Below are positions 4,376-53,963 of a stretch of 64,000 nt of DNA, piece by piece. Position 1 is the first letter of the stretch; the number at the start of each line of letters is the position of its first letter. A program made the translations under genes and the position numbers. Location of the stretch: positions 30,504,001-30,568,000 of the forward strand of contig OZ024756.1 of assembly GCA_964016885.1 (NCBI GenBank), in the 5' to 3' direction. Source of the DNA: Eledone cirrhosa (lineage: Eukaryota). The notes under the pieces are model-generated. The model was not told the origin of the DNA. It ran no database searches and was given only the letters and a program-made list of their open reading frames with translations.

Positions 4376-4569
4376 ATAGGAACCAGTAAGACCCCGACGG
4401 CTGAGCTCAAGCCGTTTCGACGGCTAATTCTGGACTGAATTAGCCGTCGAAACGGCTTGAGCTCAGCCGTCGGGGTCTTACTGGTTCCTATTACCCACTC
4501 TACTACCCTAAGTATTGAGTACTTTGGTGCGTTATGGTCCACTTGGTTCCTTACACATTTCCTTCGTTA
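4376..4569 (+). mobile_element. Fold-back element, family A, (TA)n-flanked
   Basis: Perfect 55 bp inverted arms 4376-4430 / 4437-4491 with loop TGGACT, plus ~78 bp tail; carries the 3' half of an HHR (GAAAC-GGCT-TGAGCTC-AGCC-GTC). Confidence 0.85.
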
Positions 4570-4589
4570 TATATATATATATATATATA

Positions 4590-4968
4590 ACCAAAAGTTT
4601 AACAAGGTTCATTGATTAATCAATGAATATAGTTTTACAATAGATTAGAAGCACTCAACAAAGAAGTTTTCTGGAGTTATTAATATTAATTCAAAATATT
4701 AATAAATATAGACATTCATGGGATCAAATATATTTTATTATATATATTTCGGAGGTACTGTGCTATTTCCTCAGTACGTCCTCATCAGATAAAATAAATT
4801 GATGTCTGACATACCTCAACTGTGCTCAATTCCAAGACTGGAATTGAACCATCAGCACATACATATATATATATTATATATATTAATATATACAGTATCT
4901 TTGAAATATATATAATAAAATATATTTCATCACATGAATGTCTATATTTATTAAGATTTTGAATTAAT
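4590..4968 (-). mobile_element. Fold-back element, family G
   Basis: 4686-4760 is an inverted homolog of 4892-4968; tail 4590-4685 abuts (TA)n; contains an HHR. Confidence 0.7.
4733..4794 (-). ncRNA. Type I hammerhead ribozyme motif (family G)
   Basis: TTTTAT-CTGATGA-GGAcGTACTG..CAGTACcTCC-GAA-ATATATAT-A-ATAAAA: stem I 6 bp, stem II, palindromic stem III, AUA cleavage triplet. Confidence 0.8.
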
Positions 4969-5787
4969 CTATTTCAAAATTAATCTATCTCAAAATTAAT
5001 CTATCTCAAAATTATTTTTGAAAAGCATCAGAAATGCGCAACCGGTAAAAACTTAAAACTAAAACTGAATACGAACCAATACTTATTACTAATTTATACT
5101 TATTCCTAATTAAATTATTTTTCACTGGGAAAAATTTGTCAGCATTTTCTTTTCCTTTTACTAAATGCGCATAATATAATACATGGAACTCTTTTAACCA
5201 TCTTTTGCTCTTATATATTATATATATATATATATATATATATATATATATAATGTATGTATACTGTAGAGATTAGACAATTTTGAAGAGAAGTTAGCGC
5301 TATACATAATATGATAATATGTAAAACTTCATTATTCAATACGGTGACATTCTCGCCATGAGTTTATTTGATCCAGACTAATTCGGGTGGTTATTTGGTT
5401 ACTACTTTAATTCTAGTATATTGACATGTATAGATAAATATACAAGGACTGGAGCATACTATGCACTCACATATATACCGACCCATGCATAGGCACCCAC
5501 CCATATATATATATATATATATATATATATATATATATATATATATATATATATAAATAAATATATGTGTATATATATATATATATATATATATATATAT
5601 ATATATATTATATGTATATATATAGAGAGATATAGACATATATATATATATATATTTATATATATATATAATATATATAAATATATGGTTATATATATAT
5701 ATATATATATATATTATATATATATATATATATATATATATATATATATATAAATATATGGGTTTATATATATATATATATATATAT

Positions 5788-5843
5788 AGAATTAGCCGTC
5801 GAAACGGCTTGAGCTCAGCCGTCGGGGTCTTACTTACTCCTAT
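5788..5843 (+). mobile_element. Solo arm of family A inside (TA)n
   Basis: gaattagccgtcgaaacggcttgagctcagccgtcggggtcttacttactcctat. Confidence 0.8.
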
Positions 5844-6937
5844 ATTTATATATATATATATATATTTATAGACATATATATGTATAGACATATATATGTA
5901 TGTATGTCTACATATGTATATATACACTCAAACATATATACAGTACCATACGTCCATAATGGTGAATATTCTGGATGTTCTGTGATATGAGTTGAAAGAT
6001 TTCAAACGAATTTCCGTGTTATTTCTGTCAGAAAATCATTATTGTTTCCCAAGATGGCAGATACAAAATAAAAGACACAAGCTGATGCAAACACACAAAA
6101 CGTCTCTCTCCCCCCGTCTCTCTCTCTCTCTCTCTCTCTCTCTCTCTCTCTCTCTCTCTCTCTCTCTCTCTCTCTCTCTCTCTCTCTCTCTCTCTCTCTC
6201 TCTCTCTCTCTTTATCTAATATATCTATCTATCTATCTATCACTCTCTCTCTAACCCTCTCTTACTCTCACGCACCTACATATAAATACGTAGGAACATA
6301 CATATAATCGATTCTCTCTCTCAATATATATGTGTTTGTATATACATATAACTGTATATATTAATATATTAATATATATATTAATATATATAGGTATCTT
6401 TATATATTAATACATGTACATACATATACGAGTATATATATTACTAATACATATCTGTATATATTAACATATACCCATATTATTATGTTTATATATATAT
6501 ATATATATATAATTATATATATATATATACATATAAATATATAAATATGTATATATATATATATATATACATATTTATATATATATATATATATATATAA
6601 TATATATATAATTATATATATATATATATATATAATTATATATATATATATATATATATATAATTATATATATATATATATATATATAATTATATATATA
6701 TATATTATATATATAATTATATATATATATATATATATATATATAATTATATATATATATATATATATATCTTATATATATATATATATAATTATATATA
6801 TAATATATTATATATATTAATTATATATATATTATATTATATATATATATATATATATATATATATATATATATATAATTATATATATATATATATATAT
6901 ATTATATATATATATATATATATTATATATATATTAT

Positions 6938-50575: not shown

Positions 50576-51021
50576 TATATATATATATATATATATATAT
50601 ATATATGCTTATGTAACCTTATCATATACTTGGTATTTCCTTTCTCTCCCACTTCTGGGCTCATTTCTCTTTCTACTCCTTATAGTTTACTACCTTTCTT
50701 TTCTCAACGCCTTCCATCTTGCAGCACTTCACGTACAGACAGAAATAGCCATGTCACGTTAATTTGCGAAATATGAAATATCACTTCATCAAGTGTGAAA
50801 ATATATAGATAAGAAGTTATATTCGGAACTTATATTGTTTGATTTCCAAAAAAACAAAGAGATTGAACAATGACACGAACACAAACATACACATTTATAT
50901 ATATGTATATATATATGTGTGTGTGTGTGTGTATATATACATATATATATATATATATATATATATATATATATATATATATATATATGTATATGTATAT
51001 GTATATATATATATATATATG

Positions 51022-51313
51022 TAACGAAGGAAGGTGTGGTAAGGAACCAGGTGGACCATAACGCACCAGAGTACTCGATACTTAGGATAGTAGAGTGGGT
51101 AACAGGAAAACAATCAGTTCAGATCTAGCTTTCAAACCGCCGAAACTCAGCCATCGGGGTCCTGACTCTTTTCCTATATATATATATATACAGAAATTTA
51201 TAAGTTTGTAAATTTGTAAATTTATAAATTTATAAATATATAATAAATTGAAGTGAAAGCAACTGGTGCGTGTGTTTCTTATTGGCAGCATGACCCTCCC
51301 AAAGTATAACAAT
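51022..51313. mobile_element. Family A subfamily element (51022-51177) and family D 3' piece (51191-51313)
   Basis: Homology to 46090-46243 and 55095-55214. Confidence 0.75.
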
Positions 51314-52218
51314 ATATATATATATATATATATATATATATATATATATATATATATATATATATATATATATATATGTGTGTGTGGAGTTTTAGGGATG
51401 AAAAAAAATCACCTGCGAAGCATAGATATTTTCAACTATTTTAAACATTACTCAGCACACAGAAAAATAAAAGAGATAGTGCTAATGACGACTTATCCAT
51501 ATTTATTGTCATCTAATAAGAGAATAACTACTACTATGATTCCGTTTACGAATGCATTTACTTTCGTTAACACTGGTCTGAACATTGCTAGATAATAAAA
51601 GCTGGATGGTCCCGGCGTGAAAGTGTTGTATGATAGATATTTTCAATCAGAGCCTAGTTGGAGAGTTACATAGCAATCAAATTTCCTGTATAAAAACAGA
51701 CAACAACTCGCAGATCATGTAGGGCGCTAAGGTAGCATCTAATTATCACGCGTGGCTTCCAAACTTAGATGCTATTCAAAATCTCAGTAATTATTGCCGT
51801 AAAACGTCTGTGAAAATCCTAATTATTTTTGACTCGTCATAAATAAAAAAAATAGTTTCAGAAAATATGAACAACCGCAATATTTCACATCCGTTAGTTA
51901 ATGCTAAATTATTGCTAGACGTCTGTCGAGTCTCAGTTATTCCGATCCATATAACTCGAAAATTCGCAACCGATGATAAATTAGCCTGGAAAATATTCTT
52001 TTTTTTTCGGTTTATATTATTCTTCTTGTTTTTTTTTTATGCATCAACGTTGTAAGATATTTTATGGTCGTATTGCCGAGAAGCCTCAATTTTTTTAAGC
52101 AGCGAGAGAACAAATTGCTTTCCACACACAAACACACACACTCACACACACGTATACACAGGCACTCATATATATATGTCTACATATATATATATACACA
52201 CACACATATATATATATA

Positions 52219-53352
52219 TTTCGTTTCTGAATTTGTTTAGCAAGATACTTTATCTGAAAACGTGTGTTGAAACCGATATTGTTATACTTTGGGAGGGTCA
52301 TGTTGCCAATAAGAAACACACACACCAGTTGCTTTCACTTCAATTTATTATAAATTAAATTTATAAATTTTGGAATTTATAAATTTCCGATTGGTTGGTT
52401 GGTTCCACAACCAGACGATTGTTCATATATTGTCAAAGTTCTTTCGTCACACATTCTGTGACCTCTTCAATGATTGGGATTCTTTTTGTGTCTCTCCTTT
52501 TTTCTGTCCTACGCCATCTTGTTTTTGTGTGTGTTGTGTACTTAGTTTGCTCATGTGTTACATCCGGGTGTATGTGTGTGTTTATATTTGTTTATTTATT
52601 TGTTTATTTACATGTTACTGGTTGTTTGTTTGTTCTATGTGTGTGTGTGTTTTCATTTTGTCCTTAATCGTAAGTTGTGATGTTGCTGTTCCATGCATAT
52701 TTTCTATTTAATTTTGATTGGAGTTCATTTAAGTTTATAGCCTCTGTGATTTGTCTAAACATTGCGTCTTTTCTGTGTGTAGATTCTATTATTATTGTTT
52801 TTTATTTTTTTTAGAAATAAAATAGAAATAAAAATAGAATCTACACACAGAAAAGACGCAATGTTTAGACAAATCACAGAGGCAATAAACATAAATGAAC
52901 TCCAACCAAAATTAAATAGAAAACATGAATGGAACAGCAACATCACAACTTACAATTAAGGACAAAAGGAAAACACACACATAGAACAAACAACCAACCA
53001 GTAACATGTAAATAAACAAATAAATAAACAAATATAAACACACACAGACACCCGGATGTAACACATGCGTAAACTAAGCACACAACACACACAAAAACAA
53101 GATGGCGTAGGACAGAACAAAGGAGAGGCACAGAAACAAAGAAAAGAATCCCCAGTCACAGAAGAGGTCACAGAATGAGTGACGAAAGAGCTTTGACAAT
53201 ATATGAACAATCGTCTGGTTGTGGAACCAACCTACCAACCGGAAATTTATAAATTCCTAAATTTATAAATTTAATTTATAATAAATTGAAGTGAAAGCAA
53301 CTGGTGCGTGTGTTTCTTATTGGGAACATGACCCTCCCAAAGTATAACAATA
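52219..53352 (-). mobile_element. Long fold-back element, family D (~1.07 kb palindrome plus 60 bp tail)
   Basis: Arms ~52278-52805 / ~52815-53352; each arm has a core-mutated HHR (52432-52474 minus, 53155-53197 plus). Confidence 0.9.
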
Positions 53353-53750
53353 TATATATATATATATATATATATATATATATATATATATATATGCACA
53401 CACACACACACACACACACACACACACACACACACACACACACACATATATATATATATATATATATATATATATATATATATATATAGAGAGAGAGAGA
53501 GAGAGAGAGAGAGAGAGAGTTTACGAATCTGTCTTCAACGACCTCCAGCCACTACTCACTCACTCAATGAGCTAATAAGTTTGCAAGTGAGAAAAATTCC
53601 AGCTAATAGTCAGAGTGTACACAATAGTTAATCAGTACGTTAGATGGTAGTGTTTTGGTAATGATACTGAATAGATTGCAGCATTCTGTCTATAACAGTT
53701 GTTATTAAAAGTGTTATATGCAAAGGATTATATATATATATATATATATA

Positions 53751-53963
53751 AAACGAAGGAAATGTTGTAAGGAACCAGATGGACCATAACGCACCAAAAT
53801 ACTCAATACTTAGGGTAGTAGAGTGGGTAATAGGAACGAGTAGGACCACGGCGGCTGAGCTCAAGCCGTTTCGACGGCTAATTCTGGACTAATAAAAAAA
53901 CAAAGTCCAGAATTAGCCGTCGAAACGGTTTGAGCTCAGCCGTCGGGGTCCTACTCGTTCCTA
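53751..53963 (-). mobile_element. Fold-back element, family A
   Basis: Arms ATAGGAACGAGTAGGACC..TCTGGACT / AGTCCAGA..GGTCCTACTCGTTCCTAT with an A-rich 13 nt loop. Confidence 0.85.

Follow-up and report, generated by a model that had tools for sequence, protein, structure and literature searches.

The window analysed here is the whole 64,000-nt stretch of Eledone cirrhosa contig OZ024756.1 from position 30,504,001 to 30,568,000. It carries short repeated hairpins, family A, which are almost certainly the pseudo-long terminal repeat (pseudo-LTR) and tail of a Penelope-like retroelement with Hydra-type motifs. Five head-to-head copies lie at 4376, 12351, 44957, 50380 and 53747. The A of AGTCCAGA was taken as +1. 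One arm ends at +1 in four of the five hairpins (4436, 12494, 45099 and 53890) and at +2 in the fifth (50380; arm end at 50519), and the partner arms begin anywhere from +1 to +7. Four more pieces (37569, 46105, 51022 and 57622) had been overlooked in an earlier, sequence-only reading of the window; three of them have an arm end at +39 to +53. The family A features of the window are as follows.

4376..4436, minus strand: tailless arm, +61 to +1 of the pseudo-LTR
4437..4573, plus strand: tailed arm, +7 to ~+143, then (TA)n
5788..5843, plus strand: solo tailless arm, +6 to +61, flanked by TA runs
9576..9774, unstranded: repeat of the 4376 hairpin within a 5.2-kb tandem duplication, no separate insertion
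10978..11034, plus strand: repeat of the 5788 solo arm within the duplication
12351..12550, unstranded: hairpin; minus-strand tailed arm to +1 (12494), tailless arm from +6
37569..37665, minus strand: tailed arm, early end near +48
44957..45259, unstranded: tailed arm to +1 (45099), 148-nt TA-rich filler, ~12-nt remnant from +1 (45248)
46105..46239, plus strand: diverged tailed solo arm, older subfamily
50380..50578, unstranded: hairpin; tailed arm ends near +5, tailless arm from +2 (50519)
51022..51176, unstranded: diverged-subfamily hairpin; tailed arm ends near +53, partner from the +1-equivalent A (51116)
53747..53964, unstranded: hairpin; tailed arm to +1 (53890), 13-nt A-rich filler, tailless arm from +1 (53904)
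57622..57747, unstranded: hairpin; turn at ~+39 to +42, adjoining the predicted cleavage site

The loop fillers vary between copies, as the sequence-only reading had noted (148 nt at 44957, with self-complementary ends; 13 nt, A-rich, at 53747). The same reading took variants common to both arms of a copy as private to that copy. These are in fact subfamily variants, one present in 23 of 64 arms and the other in 8 of 64. Independent origin of the hairpins was nevertheless confirmed, except that the 9576 and 10978 copies stem from duplication of those at 4376 and 5788. The duplicated region (~1935-11900; period ~5.2 kb, 98.7% identity) takes in both copies and could be recent or an assembly effect.

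Longer copies revealed the parent element. Arms extending beyond +1 run into a 3′ untranslated region (UTR) and then into a frame with reverse transcriptase (RT) and GIY-YIG motifs; copies extending beyond the tail enter the beginning of the same frame. In tandem arrays the unit is 3,531-3,543 bp with a single open frame of 784 codons, in which RT motifs are followed by GIY-YIG-type endonuclease motifs. A Pfam search of the frame product found no family; the RT/GIY-YIG assignment thus rests on motifs and by-eye likeness to Hydra proteins. A protein search found 819 relatives, mostly near 40% identity among the matches listed. Tandem or partial-tandem pseudo-LTRs, an inverted 5′-truncated copy and a one-sided tail, the marks of endonuclease-bearing Penelope elements, were all present. 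So was the Hydra motif set (DKT, CxCx5C linker, CxxC, CxH and (TA)n insertion); CCHH was absent by eye. These motifs and the by-eye resemblance of the predicted protein to Hydra-1_Obim suggest that the element belongs to the Hydra clade. In the available part of the published clade description (Craig et al. 2021, PMC8557442), likenesses extend to one open reading frame (ORF) that carries RT and C-terminal GIY-YIG, DKT and the CxCx5C linker; to CxxC, CxH and one cysteine in the GIY-YIG core; and to (TA)n targets and a hammerhead in the pseudo-LTR. The unit here is 3.5 kb, whereas those published are mostly <3 kb, and RWR replaces RWK. The ribozyme listed there for Hydra-1_Obim has a C3-G8 core and short stems, unlike that of the present element, which is therefore another family.

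Three further observations concern the coding copies. In several intact copies (L206:756-960) the frame is open for 67 codons 5′ of the first ATG, through the tail, and a non-AUG start is possible. A short direct repeat stands ahead of both 3′ end points (L206:775-790 and 840-860). The L206 tail between these points folds as a hairpin, and repeat and hairpin together are a candidate enzyme-binding signal. A non-LTR retrozyme was rejected as the source of the short copies (stubs), which come as inverted pairs lacking the first core box; the units observed in tandem are coding elements of 3.5 kb.

The long copies hold a complete predicted type I hammerhead with a U3-A8 core. Its parts run in the order stem I, UUGANAA, G10.1-C11.1, long stem II, GAAAC, stem III with a palindromic loop, GUC and the stem I partner. 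Among 51 distinct long copies selected by the flanking pattern, 47 had the core box UUGANAA, with all four bases used at its position 7 (19, 10, 9 and 9). Helix cells were paired in 89% of cases versus 31-53% in slid controls, and the three-stem form was predicted for three of four folded copies. Type I features were found in long copies only, not in stubs. The sequence-only reading had correctly placed the turning point inside hammerhead domain II and had found no CTGANGA in the five window hairpins. It had expected stem I and CTGANGA in longer copies; the stem I complement is there, but the box reads UUGANAA, and a CTGANGA search therefore misses the parent ribozyme. Such a search upstream of the arm gave 41 matches, and the 30 examined were junction filler, mutated arms or neighbouring DNA. 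As judged from their sequence, the CTGANGA boxes in these 30 are chance junction products and not the element's own upstream part. The claim that every copy keeps the 3′ half of the hammerhead was overstated, because the 45248 arm is a ~12-nt remnant and GUC is mutated in the long arms of 44957 and 53747. In an Rfam scan of the 64-kb window, the best 150 of 420 matches were low-complexity and below cut-offs, and included no hammerhead. In L004, L009 and L024 (~1500-1540), family A arms follow immediately on the CUGANGA half of another hammerhead family, forming chimeric junctions.

The ends of 101 arms, all within the initial 11.3 Mb of contig C1, were mapped. Eighty ended within 24 nt of GAAAC, 2 in the next 34 nt, and 19 passed the whole ribozyme. 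The shared inversion point of the sequence-only reading is thus real outside the window also, but as a zone rather than a point; the 5788 solo arm starts within this zone, at +6 and not at exactly the same place. Ends were clustered far above chance, not scattered. They fell mostly at +1 or slightly short of it, with a peak at +1/+2 (23 arms, plus 4 alignment overshoots likewise ending at +1). The stem III arm 17-mer had 67,602 exact matches, versus 2,070 for the 17-mer upstream of stem I, which misses part of the subfamilies and so undercounts. Two datasets stored as contigs (of unrecorded kind, maybe the source of the assembly itself) showed the same copy-number step and TA-joined ends at +61/+141. 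In 100 tail-anchored arms judged by eye, ~81 reached stem II. The predicted ribozyme cleavage site follows +41; only ~2-4 of the 100 ended at or beside it, and no stop hotspot was evident there.

Nearly every hairpin proved to be an unequal pair: 43 of 44 had one tailed and one tailless arm. The two arms have fixed 3′ ends, at ~+61 (tailless) and ~+141 (tailed), both against (TA)n. An identical subfamily tag was present on both arms in 25 of 32 hairpins, versus 19% by chance. Hand scoring of 5′ reach in 23 hairpins showed the tailless arm extending further in 11 (by ≥3 nt in 5 of these) and the tailed arm in 8, with 4 ties. Because the tailless arm often reaches further 5′, neither arm can have been copied from its partner; each can hold bases absent from the opposite arm, which rules out simple fold-back as a general route.

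We propose that the enzyme makes a nick in each strand of a TA repeat and that reverse transcription begins at two internal sites near the RNA 5′ end. Having reached ~60 and ~140 nt, both complementary DNAs (cDNAs) would run off that end and then be joined head to head by repair, with trimming, microhomology or filler; a brief fold-back during end joining may be part of the process. Long insertions would use the same two sites in the downstream pseudo-LTR of an uncut transcript. Restarts in direct orientation would represent template jumps at the RNA end. An RNA beginning at +1 lacks the first core box, so that its own priming sites would not be cut off.

This model has two parts, held with different confidence. 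That the element RNA ends at +1 is quite probable. The sequence-only reading had offered a defined 5′ end or a strong RT pause, and three indirect tests favour the former. First, among 20 hand-scored long-arm events with a placeable partner, the partner also passed the boundary in 14, versus ~20% expected for an independent pause (p ~2e-6). Second, a set of 30 ORF-linked pseudo-LTRs comprised 8 that begin at -5 to +19, 17 that continue upstream (13 once an array and a duplicate are merged) and 5 that begin in the tail or are rearranged. Third, 7 direct-orientation junctions (6 insertions) join a piece ending in the ORF (~+203 to +960) to a start at -3 to +4. That the stubs turn at +1 since the RNA begins there, at a transcription start inside hammerhead domain II, is the explanation we favour on balance, with less assurance.

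Initiator and TATA consensus motifs were compared with the region around +1. In all 18 aligned copies +1 is A and is preceded by a pyrimidine at -1; a TATA-like run begins at -29 to -31, and this promoter-like spacing is suggestive. An extra C left by a capped template was also considered, untemplated G being a known mark of such templates (in the available part of PMC9341517). The commonest untemplated base after +1 was C (87 C to 13 T, versus 24 to 76 at +4), and another comparison gave 91 C to 9 G against a background of 5.6 to 1. The signal was suggestive at first; after the control at +6 it was not specific. A splice acceptor at +2/+3 was ruled out by the scatter of restarts from -3 to +4.

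Several observations weigh against a start at +1 or against the evidence for it. The boundary is somewhat blurred. Of the 101 arms, 11 run on to -1 to -4, in some cases with A runs; either part of the RNA pool must continue beyond +1 or bases are added by the enzyme. The coupling test, which relied on hand scoring, omitted ~22 long arms whose partner could not be placed. TATA-like runs are frequent in AT-rich DNA. The C excess after +1 is confounded by microhomology with the partner, and in TA-abutting arms C followed +1 in 16 of 100 cases versus 13 of 100 at the control position +6 (p = 0.69). In addition, no two-sided compensatory change was found in the ribozyme helices of 18 closely related copies.

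The strongest alternative, to which we give a small but real chance, is that a longer RNA carries a strong RT block in domain II, through structure or a bound protein, and that the fate of the first enzyme decides that of the second. Domain II is predicted to form a long hairpin whose upper stem covers +1, the arms that pass +1 by a few bases end in part in A runs opposite a U tract, and a coupled block would also give paired outcomes. However, stems I and III and lower stem II would be read through first, ~81 of the 100 tail-anchored arms reach stem II, an independent pause is rejected by the coupling count, and a template end accounts better for the direct-repeat restarts at -3 to +4. It is less likely still that the end at +1 arises by processing, because a nuclease cuts in domain II or the ribozyme folds in another way, instead of by initiation. 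The template-end evidence would fit equally and the cap test failed its own control, but the predicted ribozyme site lies after +41 rather than at +1, the pyrimidine-A start and the TATA-like spacing persist from subfamily to subfamily, and the spread of restart points is unlike a splice site.

Very little probability attaches to one cDNA folding back so that the second arm is copied from the first, or to a short palindromic master element that multiplied itself. Variants are common to both arms, a few junction types recur often and resemble 4-6 nt loops closed by one base pair, and some long pairs are symmetric (L045, L151). Against this, arms hold bases that the partner lacks (window 4376, L113, L123, L125 and L138; long pairs L153 and L161), and junctions and subfamily tags are diverse, several tags tracing to long or ORF-bearing parents. 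Finally, the sequence-only suggestion of half-ribozymes completed in trans, here as selected stubs served by another RNA, is the least credible: an RNA from +1 would comprise precisely the half that serves as substrate (GAAAC, stem III, GUC and the stem I 3′ strand) and the parent 3′ UTR contains the strand it lacks, but the parent has the whole motif in cis, including the stem I partner that the reading had predicted, so no trans partner is needed, stubs decay freely (GUC is mutated in 2 window arms), and their structure is explained as an insertion by-product. The stubs are no RNA device in their own right but truncated copies of a retrotransposon.

The element type and the head-to-head layout are already known, and the available parts of the literature allow the following comparisons. 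Published inverted 5′-truncated pseudo-LTRs (PMC8557442, PMC3846280, PMC2377424) likewise have head-to-head arms, a one-sided tail, partial tandems and microsatellite targets. Their truncation is variable, whereas most arms here stop short of passing the ribozyme (80 of 101 sampled; ~97% by 17-mer counts, which undercount other subfamilies), and their tail is 30-40 bp compared with ~80 nt. Palindromes were ascribed in PMC3846280 to self-priming on an antisense template; the present arms are consistent with two cDNAs made from sense RNA. In vitro, the PAc enzyme uses two internal start sites that define the tail, and both DNA strands are cut and extended (Frangieh et al. 2024, PMC11167929). Under the proposed model the present element would resemble it in these respects and in AT-rich targets and an uncut RNA template; the fixed 5′ boundary and head-to-head joining are features of this element. 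The two start points of the present element each finish in TA and might base-pair with the target. Transcription of Drosophila Penelope begins within the pseudo-LTR (PMC2377424), and the R2 enzyme is known to jump templates once it has added untemplated bases (PMC8857657). Among Penelope hammerheads, the U3-A8 core has already been published as a variant (Cervera and De la Pena 2014, PMC4209133). In the type I ribozymes described there, too, U3-A8 replaces C3-G8, and they likewise show G10.1-C11.1, a long stem II, a palindromic loop III and opposite-strand pairs; stem III here is longer (3-4 bp and a 7-nt loop), and the proposed RNA start lies inside domain II. Our literature searches, mostly outside subscription journals, found no report linking Penelope stub junctions to a transcription start.

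Other repeats were noted. Further CTGANGA-type hammerhead-like motifs occur in the window at 4730-4795 and 9930-9995 (minus strand) and at 24225, 48850, 55005, 56620 and 58950 (plus strand), and are probably further Penelope families. A 191-nt unit is present three times in tandem at 18138-18723; we take it to be a tRNA-like short interspersed nuclear element. Among long copies, a head-to-head insertion and its neighbour (L156-L158) seem to have been duplicated as a larger palindrome.

The origin of inverted pseudo-LTRs, one-sided tails and partial tandems in Penelope elements is described as unresolved in the available parts of PMC8557442 and PMC2377424. With its intact coding copies, its pair of fixed priming sites and its sharp 5′ boundary, family A makes a single model of two internal starts, run-off and end joining or jumping testable. 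Added here are the intact parent, its complete U3-A8 ribozyme sequence, the measured boundary, and a model in which stubs form by run-off at the RNA 5′ end. The U3-A8 variant also shows why CUGANGA searches undercount such ribozymes. A bolder and doubtful extension is that the element puts its transcription start inside its own ribozyme, so that the mRNA would begin with half a hammerhead and carry a complete hammerhead at the 3′ end, and that the 3′-UTR strand could close the ribozyme across the mRNA ends. If this is true, the stubs would be the Penelope counterpart of retroviral strong-stop DNA, mapping the start site in tens of thousands of copies, and a ribozyme closed across both mRNA ends would remove the cap and yield unit-length RNA.

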